This document shows, piece after piece, positions 1-16,532 of a stretch of 18,265 bases of DNA. The position numbers and the translations under genes were made by a program. The stretch's first letter is position 1. Each line of letters starts with the position of its first letter. The notes below the pieces were generated by a model. The model worked only from the letters and a program-made list of their open reading frames with translations, was not told the DNA's origin and searched no databases. Source of the stretch: a virus (lineage: Duplodnaviria; Heunggongvirae; Uroviricota; Caudoviricetes); IMG/VR virus record IMGVR_UViG_2630968639_000010. One strand, 5' to 3'.

Positions 1-156
1 TTACTCCTCAGGTTCGTAAACTGTGAAGACAGCGATCTCCGTCTGACCGGTTCGGATTCGCACCTCGCAGAGGTCTTTCCACGTTACCAGTACCGTCACT
101 ATGACGGTTAAACAGATGACGATTAGAGCGAGTAACATCGCCTTTTGCTGCTTCAT
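1..156 (-). CDS. hok: Hok/Gef-family type I toxin (small membrane peptide), 51 aa
   Basis: Translation MKQQKAMLLALIVICLTVIVTVLVTWKDLCEVRIRTGQTEIAVFTVYEPEE closely matches Hok/RelF-type toxins as I remember them. ATG at 156-154, stop at 3-1. The in-frame upstream extension in the ORF track (to 183) is not used. Confidence 0.85.
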   Translation of the reverse strand: MKQQKAMLLALIVICLTVIVTVLVTWKDLCEVRIRTGQTEIAVFTVYEPEE

Positions 157-212
157 AGCCCGCTTCTCCTTGCCTTTCGGCACGTAAGAGGTAACCTATA
201 GGTGCAAGTCAT
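153..212 (-). CDS. mok-like leader ORF (19 codons) coupled to hok
   Basis: Minus-strand ATG at 212-210 preceded by GAGGA. The ORF runs in a different frame from hok and ends in TGA overlapping the hok ATG (ATGA overlap at 156-153), the arrangement known for hok/mok/sok loci. Confidence 0.4.
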   Translation of the reverse strand: MTCTYRLPLTCRKARRSGL

Positions 213-493
213 AGATATATCCTCAGATTAATGTTAAGCGTCTTGCAGGACGCGTAATGTTAACTGGGACTTTTCTCTATCGGCCTTTGGTGGCATGCCC
301 GAGGCAGATAGCCTCAAGCACCCGTAGTCATTCGACCCGTTTTAGATTTCTCAGCCAACTTTATGCTCACAACATATACAAATTTCCCGGTTAAAGCTCA
401 TCATGTTAGATAGTTTTTGCGTACGCACTATTTTTTTGTGTAAACTGCGCAAAGAAGTTTAGCACCCTAAATTGTTAAGGAAAAATTAAGGAA
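213..493. promoter_or_regulatory. hok mRNA leader region (expected Sok antisense RNA target) plus divergent promoter region for the plus-strand operon
   Basis: Noncoding gap between hok/mok and the operon start. The minus-strand sequence resembles hok leader fold-back regions from memory. A possible plus-strand promoter is TTGCGT (417-422) with TAAACT (441-446). Sok boundaries were not determined. Confidence 0.35.
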
Positions 494-1591
494 GTGTTAA
501 TGCTTGAGCAAACAGTAAAAAACATCAATTCACGCTTTGGCTGGCGCAACACCCGTAAGCTTCTTGGTTCATCACTGGGTGTAACGGCCCAAGGATTACC
601 CCTTTTTATTGAACGTGTAAATAGTGTAGTTCAGCATAATCCCGACCTAAAAGATAGAATCGACGATTTCTGGAAAGGTTTAATTTTTAGCGGGAATCGA
701 TTACTTTCTATTTATAGAATCACCGATGAAGACGTAGCAAAATTACAAACAATTTTCACAAATCAGAAAAAGGACAATAGCCCCTTCTCAGAAAAATACC
801 CAACTCCTTTATCCAGAGAGGAGCTGTTAGTTGCTGATACTGAGCTGCATTTTGCTGAACTACGTCAAGATATCATTCGTGATAAACAAATTGACACTGC
901 TGTTTTTTTATCCAAAGCGTATTACACTGAAGTGATAGAGCTTGACCCAACACATCTTAGCGATGCGGGTATGGAATTACGTGCTAATGGTGGAGAAATA
1001 AAATGCAAAACACGCCAAGTCACGCAATGCTTTAATACCATCATGCTAATGCCTGCAGAAAAAATATTAATTCTTACGATTGATTTATCTATCCTTCCAA
1101 GAAGTGAATCACAGCCTCAACAATACCTTGTGGCTAAATTTATAAAAAAAGAAGCTGGCGTTATTTTAAACAATCCCCTTGAGTTATTTGGTTCAATACA
1201 AGATCTTTACGAAAAAGTAGATGGCAGAATTTCTCATGTATCTTTTATCACCTCAGATGGCAATACAAGTTCTTTAAAACTCAAACCAAGTCAAAAGTGT
1301 TTGCGTCAAGATGTTTACCATCATAGTGGAGAGTCCGCAAGCCCAATATTGACAAAGTTTAAGTTGGGAAAAATTTGGGATTTACCACAAAGTTCTTCAC
1401 ATATTTTATCAGTAGAGTTAATATTACCAGGGAAAAGGACAATGCTTGATAATCCTAGAATTAGGTTGCATGAAGCAATTGCGAAGAACTGTAACAACAT
1501 TGATTCGATTATATTTATTGTTGAAAAAATATTGGATTCTGTTAAGTCCTGTGAAGAGAAAAGAAGAGCGAGATCATCAGGCCATAAATGA
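494..1591 (+). CDS. Hypothetical protein, 365 aa; first gene of the AT-rich three-gene operon; no recognisable motif
   Basis: Long ORF with AGGAAG Shine-Dalgarno 6 nt before the ATG at 494. Its stop overlaps the next start (ATGA at 1588-1591). No Walker A, HTH or nuclease signature seen. Confidence 0.7.
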   Translation: MLMLEQTVKNINSRFGWRNTRKLLGSSLGVTAQGLPLFIERVNSVVQHNPDLKDRIDDFWKGLIFSGNRLLSIYRITDEDVAKLQTIFTNQKKDNSPFSEKYPTPLSREELLVADTELHFAELRQDIIRDKQIDTAVFLSKAYYTEVIELDPTHLSDAGMELRANGGEIKCKTRQVTQCFNTIMLMPAEKILILTIDLSILPRSESQPQQYLVAKFIKKEAGVILNNPLELFGSIQDLYEKVDGRISHVSFITSDGNTSSLKLKPSQKCLRQDVYHHSGESASPILTKFKLGKIWDLPQSSSHILSVELILPGKRTMLDNPRIRLHEAIAKNCNNIDSIIFIVEKILDSVKSCEEKRRARSSGHK

Positions 1592-2016
1592 AAAAGAGTA
1601 TATATCACGACATTATCACGCAAATAGAGCAGGATTTTAATGATCCTGTTCGCAGTGTGTGTCGTGATCTTTTTCTTTTTCTGGTTAGTAAAGATGCTAA
1701 AAATATCAATCACTTTACATACAAAACCCTTATCAATGGTTTGACCTATCTAACTGATACGAAAGATGACTATATCCTGCTAATAAAAGCAACTGATTAT
1801 TTATCTAGCTATAAAGCACACCTATTGGATATGCATTTTCAATACATTGATAATTTAACGGAAGAACCAATACCAGTTGAAGATGATCTTATTTCCTATG
1901 CTTTAGACACAGGAAGTTTTTACCATCCAGAAACTGGCGAATTGGTTGATAATTTTAGCCAGTATCTTTATCCATACTTTACTCCTTCGAGTCTTTTGGA
2001 GAGTCTGCATGAGTGA
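1588..2016 (+). CDS. Hypothetical small acidic protein, 142 aa; second operon gene
   Basis: Start overlaps the stop of the previous gene. The C-terminal half has no Lys/Arg and many Asp/Glu. Confidence 0.65.
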   Translation: MKKSIYHDIITQIEQDFNDPVRSVCRDLFLFLVSKDAKNINHFTYKTLINGLTYLTDTKDDYILLIKATDYLSSYKAHLLDMHFQYIDNLTEEPIPVEDDLISYALDTGSFYHPETGELVDNFSQYLYPYFTPSSLLESLHE

Positions 2017-2650
2017 TGTAAACATCTGTACTGCAGACCTTCAATCATTAATTAGAATGGATCCTGAATTTAGGGGAATGGTTCAAAGAAAATTAGCTGC
2101 AGACAAAAATATTTTTGTAAAGCAACTCTATGAAGATTTAGACGACGCTATTCAGAATTTAGAAAATGACAAACACTTCTATCAAGATGCTAAGTGGGGA
2201 GAGGACGAGCTAACAGCGTCGATCAAAAATTTCCTGAAAGGTAGGTTTTATGATGTTGAACATGATACTCAACATGGCGGTCACGTTGATTTATTAGTCA
2301 AACATCAATTCGGAAAATTCGAATGGATCGGTGAAGCAAAATTATGGAGAGGCCCAAAATCTATTCATAATGGCTGGATTCAGCTAACCGAACGTTACGG
2401 CACGGGTACGTCACGTGACGATCATGGAGGAATTCTAATTTATATAAAGTCTGACAAATCAGCAGTAAAATTCAATGAATGGAAAGAATTTTTCTCTACG
2501 ACCGTTTCGGACGCAGAAATTGAAGCGGAAGGCTCTCCCCTCCGCTTTAAGAGTATCACAAAGCATCCAGCAACAGCACTTCCATATCATGTAAGACACA
2601 TGGGAGTATCCTTATACCATTACACTGGTAAAAAACCCGCTGACTCTTAA
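2009..2650 (+). CDS. Hypothetical protein, 213 aa, with a PD-(D/E)xK-like nuclease motif; third operon gene
   Basis: ATG at 2009 preceded by GGAGAG; overlaps the previous stop (ATGAGTGA). Motif GHVDLLV followed 15 residues later by FEWIGEAKL, with an upstream acidic helix (WGEDELTASIKNFL). The track start at 1946 is rejected as an unsupported hydrophobic extension. Confidence 0.7.
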   Translation: MSDVNICTADLQSLIRMDPEFRGMVQRKLAADKNIFVKQLYEDLDDAIQNLENDKHFYQDAKWGEDELTASIKNFLKGRFYDVEHDTQHGGHVDLLVKHQFGKFEWIGEAKLWRGPKSIHNGWIQLTERYGTGTSRDDHGGILIYIKSDKSAVKFNEWKEFFSTTVSDAEIEAEGSPLRFKSITKHPATALPYHVRHMGVSLYHYTGKKPADS

Positions 2651-3168
2651 CTGGTAATTGCTATATATCCAGTCAAAAAACCTAAGGCTTTTTGCAATCT
2701 TTTACGAATTGTTCCATCTGAACATCCTTGTTGTTTTGCAATAGCACGAAGAGATAAACCAATCACGAAATGAGCAACAATTAACTCATATTCTTGTTGC
2801 TTATATCTTTCTAACCTAAGGATACTAATGTCAATAACTCGCCCTTCATCATTGCTGCACTGACGACGTGATTTTTTACCATGAGGAACAACATTTTTAT
2901 ATTTATCAGCTATTTCCTGCCAATCAATAGAACTATTTCCAGCTACAGCCCAGGCTCCCCAACTGTCCAAAGTATCATATATATTAGCATTGCTATCTAC
3001 CTGTTTTTTATATTCTTCTTTGAAGCGCGCAAGAAGCATTCTAGCCATCGTTATTATTTCTATACTTGTAACTGATTCATAAGCATCAGGAGAAATAATT
3101 CTCCCATCACTTAATGCCCTATCACTAAGATTTGCTATTTCCAATAATCGTTCTTTAGTTATTTCCAT
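2647..3168 (-). CDS. Q-like late-gene antitermination protein
   Basis: Motifs WGAWA and KRLQKALGF resemble lambdoid Q-family antiterminators as I remember them. ATG at 3168 preceded by GGTGGAG; the track's GTG start at 3180 is less likely. Its stop overlaps the stop of the gene at 2009-2650. Confidence 0.7.
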   Translation of the reverse strand: MEITKERLLEIANLSDRALSDGRIISPDAYESVTSIEIITMARMLLARFKEEYKKQVDSNANIYDTLDSWGAWAVAGNSSIDWQEIADKYKNVVPHGKKSRRQCSNDEGRVIDISILRLERYKQQEYELIVAHFVIGLSLRAIAKQQGCSDGTIRKRLQKALGFLTGYIAITS

Positions 3169-3328
3169 TATTATCTCCACCGCCCTTTCGGGCGGCCTCC
3201 TGCTGTTCTGAGGGTGCAGAAATCCCTCAGGTTAAGGACTCTATTTTATTCACAGTGCTGAATTTAATTATTCAGATTTGGATTATGCTTTCTCTTTCAC
3301 TTCACGAAGTTCCGATTATTAATTTGGC

Positions 3329-5304: not shown

Positions 5305-6429
5305 TTACCCCCTGAAGCCTGGCGGGATCGCACTATCCGGTAACGAGACTGTGTTAACCTGTCGGAGTAACGTCTCAGGTCGAACACCTTTCGGCGCGAA
5401 CAAGCCCTGGTATTCATTGGCGATGCTGTGTCGAATCACCTGCTCAGGTGAAAAACCCTGCTGGCGGAATTTTTCCAGCTCCCGTATCGCCCCGTTAGCG
5501 CCCTGCTCCGTTCGAATCGGTTTTCGCAATGCCCGCCTGAACTGGACCCACTCATGCCAGAGTGTTTCCGGCAACCAATCGGGCAGAGCAACTGACAACG
5601 GGTCGAATTTTTTCTGGCGAACCGCCCCACCGATAACCAGAATTCCCTGCTCGGTGTGCCTTGCGATATCACTGCGCCGCAAGACACATATCCCGGTTTC
5701 AACAGCACCGATTTTGAGCAGTGATTTTTGTCGTGGAGAATTTCGGTCAAGTTCGATCCCACACCGGACACCGTTCCTGTCAGTCACGACGATATCAATC
5801 CGCTCTCCGCAGCCGTCTCCACGCTCTGGTACCGGATACTCACGACAGACATCCAGGCCAGCAGCCTGCAACGCCGCCACCGCAGAATTACAAAATTCTG
5901 CTGCAGTACCGCCAGACAATCTCCCCTCAAGCACTCCAGCCACAAAATCCCGAAACTCCCTTCCGGAAGGGAAGGGTTTGGGATGGGTTAGATCAGTATT
6001 TATATCTTCCTCTTCCTCTGGTAACGCTTTTTGATCCGTTTGTGTAACGCTGCCAGCGTTACCTTTTCGTTTCAGTTCGCGTATTTTTGTTACTCGCTCG
6101 TTTGTAACCGCCCGTTTTTTAGAGCTTTTCCCGTTATGGCGCTCAAAGTTAGGAAGCGACAACACACCATTAGTTTCGACCAACCATCCAACCTGAATTA
6201 ACGCATCAGCAAAACCAGCCATAAAAGTGATGCGATCTATTGCGCTTTTTGTAACGCCGCGAGCGTTACACTCCGCGTTACCGTCTATCATTTGTTGATC
6301 CGCCCATACCCAGAAGCGAATGACTTTCCCTAATGCGGCATCTGGATCAATATTCAGAATCTCAGCAAGCCTGAATATTTCCGGCTTATCCGGCGTAATC
6401 ACTTCGAGCTTTATCCAGTTTGAAGCCAT
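5305..6429 (-). CDS. Phage replication initiation protein (O-like, YdaU-like)
   Basis: 374-aa ORF directly upstream of the DnaC-like loader, with AGGTGA ribosome-binding site. The position is that of the initiator in lambdoid replication modules. Confidence 0.7.
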   Translation of the reverse strand: MASNWIKLEVITPDKPEIFRLAEILNIDPDAALGKVIRFWVWADQQMIDGNAECNARGVTKSAIDRITFMAGFADALIQVGWLVETNGVLSLPNFERHNGKSSKKRAVTNERVTKIRELKRKGNAGSVTQTDQKALPEEEEDINTDLTHPKPFPSGREFRDFVAGVLEGRLSGGTAAEFCNSAVAALQAAGLDVCREYPVPERGDGCGERIDIVVTDRNGVRCGIELDRNSPRQKSLLKIGAVETGICVLRRSDIARHTEQGILVIGGAVRQKKFDPLSVALPDWLPETLWHEWVQFRRALRKPIRTEQGANGAIRELEKFRQQGFSPEQVIRHSIANEYQGLFAPKGVRPETLLRQVNTVSLPDSAIPPGFRG

Positions 6430-6506
6430 TTGTTTTCACCTTGTAACGCTCGCAGCGTTACATTTAACTGATACCGAACAAAACAGTCCGGCACGATTAA
6501 TTTCAA

Positions 6507-6929
6507 TCAATGCACTACGACAGAATCGCCGGGCGACCCACCGCCGCTGAAATGTGCTTTCCGGTAAACTGCCTGGACTGCATCATCATGCGCATCAATT
6601 GCCGTACTCAACGCTTCCTGCGCCGCCAGTAATGCACGGCGTTCCAGGGTATCGAAGATGCAGAGTCGGTGACGCAGCTCGCGCGGAAGAATTGCCAGAA
6701 CCGCAGGGATCAGTTTCTGAATTTTTTCCCTTTGCGCTTTCGTTTCACCTTTCAACCAACGGTGATAGATATTCTGATGATTGTTCCAGTCCTTGCCTGG
6801 TACCAGGGGCAATTCGCCGCCCCCCTGGCGCAGATATTCTTCAGTAATTGCATTGGCTACCCATGCCTGCCCTTTTTCAGCGGCCAGGGCTAACAGCACT
6901 GATTCAATGTGCTCATGCCTGATTTTCAT
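6507..6929 (-). CDS. ydaT: YdaT-like protein (CII-position protein of the RacR/YdaS/YdaT module)
   Basis: 140 aa beginning MKIRHEHI; AGGAG ribosome-binding site. Overlaps the upstream Cro-like gene by 17 nt. Same position as ydaT in Rac. Confidence 0.65.
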   Translation of the reverse strand: MKIRHEHIESVLLALAAEKGQAWVANAITEEYLRQGGGELPLVPGKDWNNHQNIYHRWLKGETKAQREKIQKLIPAVLAILPRELRHRLCIFDTLERRALLAAQEALSTAIDAHDDAVQAVYRKAHFSGGGSPGDSVVVH

Positions 6930-8417: not shown

Positions 8418-8573
8418 ATGGATACTATCGATCTTGGCAACAACGAATCCCTGGTGTGTGGCGTGTTCCCCAACCAGGATGGAACGTTCACCTCCATGAC
8501 ATATACCAAAAGCAAAACGTTTAAAACCGAAGTTGGCGCGCGTCGCTGGTTGGAGAAGTACACAGTAAGCTAA
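8418..8573 (+). CDS. ydaF: YdaF-like small protein, 51 aa
   Basis: Translation MDTIDLGNNESLVCGVFPNQDGTFTSMTYTKSKTFKTEVGARRWLEKYTVS; GAGG ribosome-binding site. Below the ORF-track size cut-off when taken from its likely start. Confidence 0.6.
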   Translation: MDTIDLGNNESLVCGVFPNQDGTFTSMTYTKSKTFKTEVGARRWLEKYTVS

Positions 8574-9058
8574 CGATTAAAACGTCTGCTCCTACTGTTC
8601 CAGAATAACTTCATAAAGTGGGAGTATTTTTCGGTGACGAGATAATAAGAACAGTTTGCGCCATCACTCTGATGTTGAATGATGCCCTTCCGTTCTAATT
8701 TTTTCATAACCGGGTTACGGCAAGGAGAAGTGATAATAAGATTTCCTGTTTTAAGGAAATCTTTAAATACAGCGATTTCTTTCTCAGATAAACGAAGCAA
8801 TACTCGTTGCTCTGGTAGCAATGAATAATGTTTTTGAATATGTGCTCGCAATCTTGAGAAGGAAATGGCAACCACGAAAGAAAAGGCAAAAACTATAATC
8901 TGAAAGAGCCAGGTTATTTCAGTATAAGCATTAAATACGACAGCAAACTCTTTCGGTATCAGCCAGAGAGTGAGGCCAAAAATGATAATCGTGTACATAA
9001 GTCTTTCGAGTGGCTCTTTAGCAAAAAGTTTCAACAATGGAGTAAATACATCCAACAT
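8570..9058 (-). CDS. sieB: Superinfection exclusion protein B
   Basis: From Met at 9058 (MLDVFTPLLKLF...), hydrophobic membrane segments and a C-terminus matching SieB as I remember it. The track start at 9181 is an unsupported extension. Confidence 0.8.
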   Translation of the reverse strand: MLDVFTPLLKLFAKEPLERLMYTIIIFGLTLWLIPKEFAVVFNAYTEITWLFQIIVFAFSFVVAISFSRLRAHIQKHYSLLPEQRVLLRLSEKEIAVFKDFLKTGNLIITSPCRNPVMKKLERKGIIQHQSDGANCSYYLVTEKYSHFMKLFWNSRSRRFNR

Positions 9059-9735
9059 TTCAATAACTCTCGACTGTAAGGGTATTGAAATGTTAACACA
9101 AGCTCTCGCTGTAGGGGTATAGCCGAGACCACCGAAGCCCGGAGGTGGTGAAATAAAACCGGGCACAACACGAAGGCGCATTTCCGATATCCATAAAGAG
9201 TCGGTCTTGTCTGTTAAATATAAATGGTGGGAGTGCGCCTCCGGTTGTGAATAACGACATTGCTGTGTGTAGTCTTTGGCGGCATCGGTTTTTTCTTGAA
9301 GTTCGACTGATGCCCGCCCTTTTTAAAGTGAATTTTGTGATGCGGTGAATGCGGCTAAGCGCACGCGGAACAGTTAAAAAACTCTATATTAGTTTGGGTG
9401 GTATTTGTATCCGGTGTTAATTGTTAACTGGTTAACGTCACCTGGAGGCACCAGGCACCTCATCAACAAAGTTTATTTAATTATGCGCGAATTAACCGTT
9501 ATTCGTGTGTGGGGTTTCTACACCTGAAATCCACAGCTCTTTAATAATATGGATCGGGCTGTCACGTAAACCACAATTCGGGGTGCCGCCGAATGCCCTG
9601 ATTTATCCGCAGAACCGGATCACAGGGTCGGGATGTGATTTTTTTTGGACAAACCAAACTGGTGGCTTCCGCCGCTTGCGAGAAAACCAAATATAGACTA
9701 AATTATGACTAAGTTTAACGACAAGGCCGTACTTC

Positions 9736-9969
9736 ATGAAAATAGAAACTATCAGCTACATCAAGAAAAACGCAGCCTCACTGGACCTGGCAGAACCCAT
9801 TCTTGTCACGCAGAATGGTGTTCCTGCATACGTAATTGAATCCTATGAGCAGCAACAGGAACGCGAGAACGCTATTGCGTTACTGAAACTTCTCACTATT
9901 TCAGAAAACGACAAGTCTGAAGGTCGCGTGTTTTCAAAAGCACAGTTGCTGGATAGCTTTAACAATTAA
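9736..9969 (+). CDS. Phd/YefM-family antitoxin
   Basis: 77 aa with a Phd/YefM-like N-terminus (LVTQNGVPAYVIESYEQ); immediately upstream of a ParE/RelE-like toxin. Confidence 0.75.
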   Translation: MKIETISYIKKNAASLDLAEPILVTQNGVPAYVIESYEQQQERENAIALLKLLTISENDKSEGRVFSKAQLLDSFNN

Positions 9970-9977
9970 GGTTAACT

Positions 9978-10298
9978 ATGCAGGTTGAATACACACTTAC
10001 TGCCAGAACAAGCCTTGAGCAAATTGCCGACCATCTCCGGAGTAACGACATTGACCCACTCCCTGTAATAGAAGAAATTCTTGAACGATTTGAAACAAGA
10101 GTTACTGCATTCCCGTCCGGATGCCAGTTATGCCCGGAGTTGCTCAAACTTGGCGTGGCGAAATACAGAGAATGCAACACGCCAGAAGGTTACAGAGTGC
10201 TGTACTCTGTAGAAGGGGATGTTATCACTGCACACGCGGTTCTTTCCCAACGCCAGGATATTAAACAGTTACTGTTCAGGCGACTGATCAGAGTTTAG
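9978..10298 (+). CDS. ParE/RelE-family toxin
   Basis: 106 aa; C-terminal YRVLYSVEGDVITAHAVLSQRQD resembles the ParE/RelE fold signature. AGGT ribosome-binding site, 8 nt after the antitoxin stop. Confidence 0.75.
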   Translation: MQVEYTLTARTSLEQIADHLRSNDIDPLPVIEEILERFETRVTAFPSGCQLCPELLKLGVAKYRECNTPEGYRVLYSVEGDVITAHAVLSQRQDIKQLLFRRLIRV

Positions 10299-10614: not shown

Positions 10615-11178
10615 ATGGTTGAGCCAATTTCCTGCGTCATCCCTAAAATTTCCATTCACAACAACCGCCCAGTAACGACTTCTGTCGCTATTGCTAATTT
10701 CTTTGGCAAGCAACACAAGAACGTACTTCAGAAAATCCGCGCTCTCGAATGCTCACCAACTTTCATGACGGCTAACTTTTCAGCCATCGCAATATCCACA
10801 AAGGCTGGCTTTGACGAACGCGAAACAGAAGCCTACCAAATCACCAAAAACGGCTTCGTTTTCCTGGTGATGGGCTTCACTGGCAAAAAAGCCGCTGCAT
10901 TCAAAGAGGCCTACATCGCTGAGTTCGACCGCATGGAAGCAGAGCTACGCCAGAATAATACCACTCCCACAAACAAAATCATTCCGGGCGATGGGCGCAC
11001 TCTGGTTGTTCGCTTCGACAAATTCGGCAACGTCGAATTCACTGAAACCGTTCCTGATGGCGCTCTCGTCTGTACCCTGGACACTTTCCGCCTTTATCTG
11101 GAGAAACAGGGCTGGACTCTTGTAAACCGAAGCGCAATTAAAAATATGACCGTCGAGCAGTTGCTGAGTATTAAATAG
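10615..11178 (+). CDS. Rha-family phage regulatory protein
   Basis: N-terminal VTTSVAIANFFGKQHKNVLQKIRAL resembles the Rha N-domain; GGAGG ribosome-binding site 6 nt upstream. Confidence 0.65.
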   Translation: MVEPISCVIPKISIHNNRPVTTSVAIANFFGKQHKNVLQKIRALECSPTFMTANFSAIAISTKAGFDERETEAYQITKNGFVFLVMGFTGKKAAAFKEAYIAEFDRMEAELRQNNTTPTNKIIPGDGRTLVVRFDKFGNVEFTETVPDGALVCTLDTFRLYLEKQGWTLVNRSAIKNMTVEQLLSIK

Positions 11179-15000: not shown

Positions 15001-15210
15001 TTCGTCAACAAAGATGCTGGCTATCACTGGGTGGCAGTCGTGGAAGCCTCGCAGGAACTCCTGGAACTTGGTCGACAGGAATATCGCCGGACGCTACGAC
15101 AGATAAACGAAGCCCTGGAGACAAACAACTGGCCAGCACCGATTACCGAAAGTTATACCGACGAATTAAACGACTTTGATCTTCGTCGTCTTGAAGCACT
15201 GAGCATCTGA
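12067..15210 (+). CDS. recE: RecE-like exonuclease VIII (PD-(D/E)xK 5'-3' dsDNA exonuclease) with an extra internal segment
   Basis: N-terminus [26 protein letters not shown] and a C-terminal core (RVRPDIEIR ... CADVKSV ... YHLSAAMY ... NNWPAP) match RecE from memory. 1047 aa, longer than the K-12 protein as I remember it. Confidence 0.8.
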
Positions 15211-15221
15211 GGAAGGACACA

Positions 15222-16274
15222 ATGAACGAATTAACTCAACAAGAAAATATTAACTCTAACGTTGCGGTTTTCAGCCCTCAGTCCCTGGCTGCAATTCAGA
15301 CATTTTCTCAGGTAATGGCTTCCGGCATGGCTACAGTACCGGAACACCTCCGGGGAAACCCATCAGACTGTATGGCCATCACCATGCAGGCGATGCAGTG
15401 GCAAATGAACCCTTACGCAGTAGCTCAGAAAACTTTCGTTGTGAATGGTGTGCTAGGGTATGAAGCGCAACTGGTTAACGCCGTAATCAGCACCCGTGGG
15501 CCGCTAACTGGGCGTATTGAATATGACTGGTTCGGACCGTGGGAAAAAATCATCGGAAAGTTTGAAATCAGGAAGAACGACAAAGGAAAGGAATATCGCG
15601 TCCCGGGATGGAAACTGGCTGATGAAAACGGGATCGGTGTTCGTGTCCAGGCAACACTACGCGGCGAAAGTAAACCGCGCGTACTGGAATTACTTCTGGC
15701 GCAGGCCAGAACACGTAACTCAACGCTATGGGCCGACGATCCTCGCCAGCAGCTTGCCTATCTGGCGCTGAAACGCTGGGCGCGCCTTTATTGCCCCGAA
15801 GTGATTCTTGGAGTGTACACCAGGGACGAACTGGACGAGCCACAGGAAAAAATCATTAACCCGGTTCAGGAACATAAAAACACATCCGCTTGCCGCGCGG
15901 AACGTGAAACAACAATTATTGAGCAGGATGCCGGGGAAAACTGGATCGATGCTTTCCGTGAACGTATTGAGCAGGCACAAAGCACCGGGGAAACAACAGC
16001 ACTTCGCCAGGAAGTGGAAGAGCATAAAAATACACTTGGCGCTCTCTATACGGAACTTAAAGGAAAAGTGGTTCAGCGTCATCACCGTCTCAATGCTATT
16101 GCCCGTATTGAGAAGATGATAAATGACCTTCCTTCTTCAGGTGATCCAGAAGCAGAACAAAAATTTACTGCTCTGGAAAATACGCTGAATGCTGCTCGGC
16201 CACATCTGGGTGAATTATATGAGGCGTATAAAACGACACTGACAGATATGAAACCAGAATATATCGGCTCCTGA
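15222..16274 (+). CDS. Putative single-strand annealing protein partnering the exonuclease (RecT/Red-beta-like position)
   Basis: Directly downstream of recE with GAGGAAGG ribosome-binding site. The sequence does not match K-12 RecT as I recall it, so family assignment is open. Confidence 0.55.
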   Translation: MNELTQQENINSNVAVFSPQSLAAIQTFSQVMASGMATVPEHLRGNPSDCMAITMQAMQWQMNPYAVAQKTFVVNGVLGYEAQLVNAVISTRGPLTGRIEYDWFGPWEKIIGKFEIRKNDKGKEYRVPGWKLADENGIGVRVQATLRGESKPRVLELLLAQARTRNSTLWADDPRQQLAYLALKRWARLYCPEVILGVYTRDELDEPQEKIINPVQEHKNTSACRAERETTIIEQDAGENWIDAFRERIEQAQSTGETTALRQEVEEHKNTLGALYTELKGKVVQRHHRLNAIARIEKMINDLPSSGDPEAEQKFTALENTLNAARPHLGELYEAYKTTLTDMKPEYIGS

Positions 16275-16337
16275 TATTTACTTTGGCGGTGTAGTCCCAC
16301 CGCCATCAAAAAAATTTATTTTATGAGAGAAAAGACA

Positions 16338-16532
16338 ATGCGGTATGAAAAAGTCAAACCATACCCTTTTTGTGGTTGTCCATCAGTAACGGTGAAAGCC
16401 ATTTCAGGATATTACCGCGCGAAGTGTAACGGATGCGAATCCCGAACCGGCTATGGTGGAAGTGAAAAAGAAGCACTCGAAAGATGGAATAAACGAACTA
16501 CTGGAAATAATAATGGAGGTGTTCATGTATAA
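16338..16532 (+). CDS. ralR: Lar/RalR restriction-alleviation protein
   Basis: MRYEKVKPYPFCGCPSVTVKAISGYYRAKCNGCESRTGYGGSEKEALERWNKR matches the Lar family from memory. Confidence 0.8.
   Translation: MRYEKVKPYPFCGCPSVTVKAISGYYRAKCNGCESRTGYGGSEKEALERWNKRTTGNNNGGVHV

Follow-up and report, generated by a model that had tools for sequence, protein, structure and literature searches.

What does a Q-like antiterminator do when the DNA directly behind it holds a convergent operon instead of a late promoter? The question is raised by the Caudoviricetes sequence IMGVR_UViG_2630968639_000010 of IMG/VR, a stretch of 18,265 nucleotides (hereafter the window) in which a minus-strand Q-like gene runs into a three-gene operon that is followed by hok. 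An earlier note on this DNA had proposed a late region deleted or remodeled in a defective prophage, or late transcription running antisense across the operon. Our analysis leans towards another answer. The Q-like gene, here named long Q, and a short DNA box beside hok/sok on the other side frame, by their conserved placement, a slot for swappable operons (the cargo), and we slightly favor the view that long Q takes control of the cargo promoter through this box and is not a late regulator. What seemed an anomaly in the window is a regular, conserved architecture, not decay. A lengthened, relocated Q paralog and a conserved box around a variable cargo slot form an arrangement that was not found described in the literature searched, in which full-text searches for the long-Q module, for DUF6731 and for a cargo slot between Q and pR' returned no description.

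The Long Q Gene and Its Product

The open reading frame (ORF) extends on the minus strand from 3180 or 3168 to 2647. Of the two starts, the GTG at 3180 is the mechanical one and the ATG at 3168 the conserved one; the latter has a GGAG 8 nt upstream, and all homologs begin with MEITKERL. The coding sequence (2647-3168, minus strand) specifies 173 aa plus a stop. The product matches PF06530 (Phage_antitermQ) with E=2.2e-31 and 108.6 bits, for a cut-off of 26, and phrog_79 ("Q-like") with E=6e-34, in agreement with the Q-family assignment of the earlier note. The similarity to the Q21 chains of 6jnx/6p18 is weak (phmmer E=1.4e-3, residues 66-145). Sigma70_r4_2 scores 24.8 bits, slightly below its cut-off of 25.7, and TIGR02937 matches residues 119-165 (E=2e-8). 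Based on these profile matches, the ORF is a member of the Q21/Q933W antiterminator family.

As aligned, long Q is made of a short-Q core and a 61-aa N-terminal extension. The extension (residues 1-61; 2986-3168, minus strand) is absent from the canonical short Qs, and the similarity to phage Qs is confined to residues 62-171 in tblastn and phmmer searches. It matches phrog_3323, a family of unknown function (E=3e-14), and two helices are predicted in it with low confidence. A fusion origin was considered and rejected, as the extension does not resemble the small ORF that precedes Q in Stx1a phages.

The PF06530 core (2650-2985, minus strand) contains a segment homologous to the torus and RNA polymerase (RNAP) contact region of Q21, followed by a helix-turn-helix (HTH) resembling that of sigma region 4 (R4); the structural facts on Q21 used for this assignment are from 10.1101/651190. 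Short Qs of 113-120 aa show 56-64% identity to the core and contain the same recognition helix, CSDGTIRK; the torus/RNAP-contact segment is as conserved as in true Qs. The HTH is recognizable by its sequence, with a motif kept in short Qs; its fold is given only by an AlphaFold2 model (54-sequence alignment) with a predicted local distance difference test score (pLDDT) of 55, below 50 in the N-terminal part, and this model was left out of the fold search.

Members of the long-Q clade (170-185 aa, 66-99% identical) are found in E. coli and Salmonella, including 66 of 5,426 complete E. coli genomes; a scan of genome contigs for long-Q relatives gave no match. No interruption of the ORF is seen in any of the 51 informative loci. 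Among ten alleles, the ratio of nonsynonymous to synonymous substitution rates (dN/dS) is about 0.30 over the whole gene, with 0.40 in the N-terminal part, 0.28 in the middle and 0.19 in the HTH part, which indicates that the protein is maintained by selection in all three segments.

The Prophage and Its Separate Late Cassette

The window matches a Rac-type prophage at ttcA of E. coli STEC308 with 100% identity, and the module of Q and operon is present in E2348/69 with 97% identity, where long Q is E2348C_RS07430 and the cargo RS07435-07445. In the order of the Q strand, the window encodes a cro-like protein, ydaT, ydaU, ydaV, DUF1627, DUF977 and Q, then the opposite-strand operon and hok. 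Left of the window, where the earlier note wished to look for lysis and structural genes, IS421, DUF1367, YbcO and a DUF1133 protein are followed, after a 390-bp gap, by AB5 toxin genes, two holins, an M15 endolysin and a terminase. Directly after the terminase the prophage stops abruptly at uspF and, with IS421 and pseudogenes present as well, it is defective.

The DUF1133 protein is a Q in canonical position, about 3.4 kb left of the window. It weakly reaches the PF06530 threshold and matches phrog_753 ("anti-termination protein Q-like") with E=1.6e-77. Its gene is directly followed by a site resembling a promoter (TTGATT-17 nt-TTCAAT), by a stretch of conserved transcribed sequence and by an intrinsic terminator, a unit that is kept in E. 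coli and Salmonella relatives. Together with the lysis genes, these elements give the prophage a canonical Q/pR'/tR'/lysis cassette without the Q of the window, and long Q, as read from this gene content, is not the late switch of this prophage.

The same holds for the relatives. Long-Q loci share one order: replication genes, DUF977 or small ORFs, long Q, convergent cargo, hok, nin-type genes and a second antiterminator, behind which tRNAs or toxin genes and then lysis genes are located. This full order was obtained from 18 of 18 long-Q loci with gene tables and is backed by DNA-level markers in 51; for 38 IMG/VR loci, long Q, hok and the box alone were located. Long Q thus sits between DUF977 and hok, outside the position of the Q21 family, and the canonical late position is held by a DUF1133, PF03589 (lambda-Q type), PF06323 or short PF06530 Q. 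As its module accompanies four late-Q families, long Q cannot be the late regulator, and the comparison of related prophages that the earlier note suggested speaks against its reading, each of the 18 loci having a separate late antiterminator. That long Q is a late antiterminator whose late region has been deleted or remodeled retains a negligible probability. The prophage does end after the terminase and carries IS421 and pseudogenes, so that the proposed defectiveness stands, but a complete and conserved alternative late cassette is present, and the four late-Q families include those of intact-looking prophages. An "antiterminator Q family protein" annotation at the long-Q position should consequently not be taken to mean the late-gene regulator of the prophage.

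Two observations concern the surroundings of this cassette in STEC308. Genes annotated as "enterotoxin A family" and "subtilase family AB5 toxin binding subunit" (15057-16275, minus strand, of the STEC308 locus, L001; ~4-5 kb left of the window) lie directly behind the DUF1133 promoter-terminator unit, which is the place of the stx genes in Stx phages. The defective Rac-type prophage carries an AB5 toxin that is apparently controlled by the late promoter. Between hok and the nin-type genes, immediately to the left of window position 1, lies the IS421 transposase (L001 18695-19807), and transcription begun in the early operon is probably interrupted there before it reaches the gene of the DUF1133 late regulator.

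The Junction between Long Q and the Cargo

The two convergent stop codons have the TTAA at 2647-2650 in common (plus-strand TAA 2648-2650; Q TAA 2649-2647), as the earlier note had stated. The exact 4-nt overlap is not conserved, as other cargo types show a 4-nt overlap, gaps of 5-40 nt or a bidirectional terminator; the convergent orientation of long Q and cargo is invariant across loci. In three cargo types, an intrinsic or bidirectional terminator follows long Q immediately. Downstream of Q, the minus strand runs antisense to the three-gene operon before it reaches hok/sok (PF01848). A simple scan of this strand from 3500 to 2186 identified no sigma-70-like site and hence none in 2550-2646, confirming what the earlier note had seen there. 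Its AT-rich block is also real, as the GC content is 0.33-0.41 over ~400-3200, Q included, and 0.45-0.55 in the flanks.

Upstream of long Q lies a conserved leader (3169-3236, minus strand) with hairpin 1 (3208-3230), hairpin 2 with a GAAA loop (3180-3195) and the Shine-Dalgarno sequence GGAG. No compensatory pairs or covariation were detected in this leader by RNAalifold, and an RNA structure is not claimed; Rfam gave no match on the leader or on the Q-cargo junction. In the 148-bp gap that precedes long Q, no site resembling a promoter was detected, so that early pR transcripts, produced on induction or infection, would probably be the only source of long Q. It is this early pR transcription, instead of the late transcription previously suspected, that must cross the operon antisense.

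The element of ~100 bp directly upstream of long Q (window 3179-3287, minus strand), with two hairpins, one of them with a GAAA tetraloop, and ending at the Shine-Dalgarno sequence, is found again, at 88-91% identity, in many of the 2,794 query-matching E. coli genomes, a large share of them. These copies stand at other gene junctions of lambdoid prophages, before unrelated small genes (L005 3501-3607 and L006 3501-3599).

The Gap between Q and Its Target in Short-Q Phages

Short Qs in the normal late position are encoded by the isolated phages Stx1a_499, vB_EcoS-569R4, mEp460_4F5 and Klebsiella phage ST846-OXA48phi9.1. In these phages, too, opposite-strand genes come immediately after Q. Beyond them stands a block that reads TAAC-GCGTACGC-AAAA-N7, with a TAATGT-type -10 starting 11 nt past the core, then GTTAAGAGTGGTTACTTCGCCACAC and an intrinsic terminator; the region transcribed after the -10 begins with GTTAAGAGTGG... 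and is invariant there. tRNAs, stx1 or lysis genes are located downstream. The layout of the block is that of a pR'/short-RNA/tR' unit, and the box falls between its -35 and -10 positions. The Q-binding element (QBE) of Q21 has likewise been located within -40 to -1 of pR'21 (10.1101/651190).

The earlier note had expected the late promoter and the Q-utilization site directly behind Q. This expectation does not apply to the subfamily: in an IMG/VR scan with a 16-mer of the short class, 63 of 80 contigs contained a short Q upstream in the same orientation, at 635-3030 bp from the box, pR' and tR' and never adjacent to them; the remaining contigs are mostly too short upstream to judge. In the 63 contigs the gap is filled by opposite-strand ORFs in about 48 different size patterns. 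Such a gap with convergent cargo implies that Q acts in trans over 0.6-3 kb and that the gap is a family trait, and the absence of a promoter directly behind long Q is, on this comparison, normal for this Q subfamily. The 16-mer scan was clean; in the corresponding scan with the 14-mer TTTTTGCGTACGCA, 61 of 80 hits were without a Q and are apparently chance matches, the specificity of this probe not being measurable.

Some prophages and phages show these elements in other combinations. In the Stx1a-converting phage Stx1_499 (L062 3373-5480), a trio of 350, 130 and 221 aa lies between Q and stx1A and is transcribed away from stx1; it is a distant homolog of the three-gene cargo of the window (23-32% identity). 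One prophage (L016; L017 likewise) encodes both a long Q (6179-6700) and a short PF06530 Q (10757-11107), each paired with a separate convergent cargo and a separate GCGTACGC box (8114 and 13304); only the second box has a pR'-like block, a terminator and tRNAs behind it. Cross-talk between the long and the short Q within one prophage seems possible.

The Box, the Cargo Promoter and hok/sok

The sole copy of the box in the window is the 10-bp palindrome TGCGTACGCA at 418-427, about 2.2 kb from long Q, which is proposed as the long-Q binding site. The expected count of the box 8-mer in the window is 0.15, and no further copy was found there, with up to 2 mismatches allowed at regulatory sites. 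A copy at pR or at the DUF1133 promoter was looked for and not found. Among the long-Q loci that extend far enough, GCGTACGC occurs once between cargo start and hok in 51 of 51, and the box is the perfect 10-bp palindrome in seven of the eight cargo types, in surroundings that are otherwise unrelated from type to type. It is absent from three related prophage regions without a PF06530 Q (L005-L007), one of which has a convergent KilA-N gene.

An anchored comparison of the eight types places the box 56-83 bp before the cargo start codon, over the -35 of a cargo-strand TTGCGT-17 nt-TATAnT. In the window, the predicted cargo promoter (417-446, plus strand) has its -35 TTGCGT at 417-422, an 18-nt spacer and its -10 TAAACT at 441-446, and the box overlaps the -35; the ribosome-binding site AAGGAAG (488-494, plus strand) precedes the first cargo gene. 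The box thereby covers about -33 to -26 of the cargo promoter, compared with -31 to -24 in pR'. This near-coincidence, the palindromic nature of the box in seven of eight types and the conserved RNAP-contact region could mean that long Q uses the box in the direction of the cargo, activating the operon or being loaded onto RNAP there. We regard this as improbable, because the cargo promoters already have a -35 beginning with TTG and a good -10, no leader terminator exists in the ~45-nt 5' untranslated region, and termination-resistant cargo transcripts would run antisense into the replication genes of the phage.

On the other side of the box lies the hok/sok locus (1-358, minus strand), the far flank of the slot, with the hok coding sequence at 156-1 and an mRNA leader that includes sok. 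The hok product matches PF01848 (E=5.5e-20), and sok is detected as Rfam RF01794 at 151-323 (91.5 bits, threshold 59). The hok promoter is TTGGCT (358-353), 17 nt, TCGAAT (335-330) on the minus strand; in long-Q loci generally, a TTGGCn-17 nt-TAGAAT promoter and the hok mRNA are found at a variable distance from the box. The box was considered as a QBE of the hok promoter and rejected, the distance to the hok start codon varying from locus to locus between 244 and 393 bp.

The Q strand at the box deserves separate attention. On this strand, the -10, the initial transcribed region and the tR' of the short-Q phages are absent or unconserved in long-Q loci, so that the box is there without a pR'-tR' unit around it. 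Long Q could nevertheless still be an antiterminator in a two-step cascade, in which it would load at the box onto RNAP on the Q strand and carry it through hok, the terminator and the nin genes to the DUF1133 Q. Transcription would have to start from a weak promoter on this strand, for which the window offers a -10-like TAACAT 10 nt after the A-tract of the box. The box core is the same as inside pR' of the closest short Qs, and the QBE of Q21 is inside a promoter as well. The torus/RNAP-contact segment is conserved and under purifying selection, and the terminators right after long Q in three cargo types imply that early genes downstream would need re-initiation or antitermination. Against this, the features invariant in short-Q phages (the -10 at 11 nt, GTTAAGAGTGG... 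and tR') are missing or unconserved, a TAnnnT is near the right place in only two or three of the eight cargo types, and the distance to hok does not allow the box to serve the hok promoter. Taken together, the cascade appears unlikely, although it is the chief competitor of the reading favored here.

The Cargo Slot and the Mosaic Structure of Long Q

Between long Q and hok, the 51 loci contain eight unrelated cargo types, all transcribed toward Q. In the window, gene A (500-1591, plus strand, 363 aa; phrog_12777, function unknown) has no match in Pfam, NCBIfam or PADLOC, and its product is 23% identical to that of the first gene of the Stx1a-phage trio. Gene B (1588-2016, plus strand, 142 aa) belongs to phrog_11490, also of unknown function. 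Gene C (2009-2650, plus strand, 213 aa) encodes a protein with a PD-(D/E)xK restriction-endonuclease fold, BamHI-like; its ATG at 2009, overlapping the end of gene B, is a likelier start than the 2057 of RefSeq. A sequence profile of protein C retrieved only chance matches from the PDB. The nuclease fold fits a defense role, and PADLOC gave no match on the three-gene cargo.

The other types consist of DUF6731 with a 159-aa protein, an NA37-like protein with one of 406 aa, 311+199 aa, 273+161 aa, a single 332-aa protein, 352+493 aa, and 241+94+182 aa. The 311+199 pair matches the PADLOC candidate PDC-M53A/B (E=2e-21 and 6e-39). By eye, the 159-aa protein and the last protein of the 241+94+182 type look membrane-spanning, and a pair of a soluble and a membrane-spanning protein, again by eye, is seen in five types (DUF6731+159, NA37+406, 311+199, 273+161 and 352+493). 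With conserved flanks and many unrelated operons at one position, the slot has the layout of a hotspot.

In a Rac-type relative (L007 2144-3541), a 167-aa non-Q protein occupies the same place and converges on a KilA-N gene, without a GCGTACGC box. Its similarity to the N-terminal extension of long Q is limited to 13 residues.

The long-Q gene itself is a mosaic. Identity over residues 1-112 is 94% among loci of one cargo type and 81% across types; for residues 113 to the end (the last ~60), the two values are 98% and 56%. Along the gene, synonymous divergence (dS) rises from 0.21 in the 5' part to 1.64 in the 3' third. As the 3' third diverges by cargo type, it would travel with the cargo, and the 5' part of Q and the 65-bp leader behave in these alignments as a shared arm. 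The idea that Q and operon were acquired together is hence valid for the 3' third of the gene only, the 5' part being shared across types.

Across cargo types, the first two-thirds of the gene and the 65 bp before it are nearly identical, which is the pattern of a homologous-recombination arm, and hok/sok could be the other arm. Long Q might then be no more than a conserved flank, a handle for cargo swapping with no regulatory role. This seems rather improbable to us, since the ORF is intact everywhere, dN/dS is 0.19-0.40 even in the diverged 3' third, the recognition helix is kept and the box is strictly kept amid unrelated sequence.

Proposed Role of Long Q

We return to the reading that is slightly favored here, in which long Q controls the cargo promoter through the box. 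Once made from early transcripts, long Q would bind the box via its conserved sigma-R4-like HTH. The cargo promoter would then come under the command of the bound protein, most probably through occlusion of the -35. A nuclease-containing defense operon, expressed in lysogeny, would thereby be silenced when the prophage induces, whereas a cargo left on could attack the phage's own lytic growth. Silencing would also clear the path for the early transcription that crosses the operon antisense, and a head-on collision would be avoided.

Several points weigh against such a role. The box could belong to another factor, its link to long Q being drawn from sequence comparison. A plain repressor does not need the torus/RNAP-contact segment that is conserved in long Q. 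The HTH part falls to 56% identity between cargo types while the box is unchanged, and linkage alone could explain why the HTH co-varies with the cargo. The AlphaFold2 model is poor (pLDDT 55, as above), and a match to a catalogued candidate defense system (PDC-M53) is seen in just one of the eight cargo types.

A broader version, which we put forward tentatively and consider possible but doubtful, is that the whole Q21-type subfamily is wired to a defense hotspot between the Q gene and its box, with long Q as a subfunctionalized duplicate. A Q at the box would then fire late transcription and, at late onset, silence the divergent, overlapping cargo promoter. Long Q would have lost the late promoter and kept the cargo-silencing job alone, and the slot would take dozens of lysogeny-expressed defense operons.

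If cargo control by long Q is true, it would explain simply how prophages escape their own defense cargo on induction, and any defense system inserted in the slot would receive an automatic off switch during lytic growth. The slot would also be a searchable reservoir of candidate anti-phage systems in lambdoid prophages: it suffices to find a PF06530 Q, to walk to the GCGTACGC box and to read what stands between. Some such cargo is located directly between Q and stx1 in Shiga-toxin phages.

Other Features of the Window

A ydaU-like ORF (5305-6429, minus strand) has 374 aa in the six-frame list, whereas RefSeq shows a pair of pseudogene fragments there, separated by 370 bp. The ORF is perhaps a hybrid, or it contains an in-frame insertion. 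Accessory loci on the pL side are a Phd/YefM-RelE/ParE pair (9736-10298, plus strand), sieB (8570-9181, minus strand) and ralR (16323-16532, plus strand).

Comparison with Known Systems

The closest characterized relatives are Q21 and Q933W (PF06530; 6P18, 6JNX), with which long Q has in common a homologous core, a sigma-R4-like HTH and a short DNA box in a promoter. Unlike them, it has a 61-aa extension, its gene stands between replication genes and hok and not before lysis genes, its box has no conserved -10, pause region or terminator behind it, and its prophage possesses another late Q. The short-Q phages resemble the long-Q loci in the variable convergent cargo after Q and in the GCGTACGC core beyond it, over the cargo promoter. 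They differ in that their box is also inside a pR' unit, a half that is replaced by hok/sok in long-Q loci.

Lytic-phase shut-off of a prophage defense has a conceptual precedent in Tha/Ith of Staphylococcus aureus prophages, in which a lysogeny-expressed defense gene overlaps a convergent/antisense lytic-phase gene that disarms the defense (Rostol et al. 2024, PMC11087260). The proteins are unrelated, and Ith inhibits the Tha protein, whereas for long Q, as a Q-family DNA-binding protein, control of the promoter is proposed.

As a hotspot, the slot can be compared with those of P2/P4-type phages, where conserved flanks surround many unrelated, mostly uncharacterized small operons, including candidate defense systems (2022, PMC9122126). 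The long-Q slot belongs to another phage family and another genomic position. It also differs in the nature of its flanks, one being a regulator-family gene and the other the probable binding site of its product, which suggests that control of the slot contents is built in.

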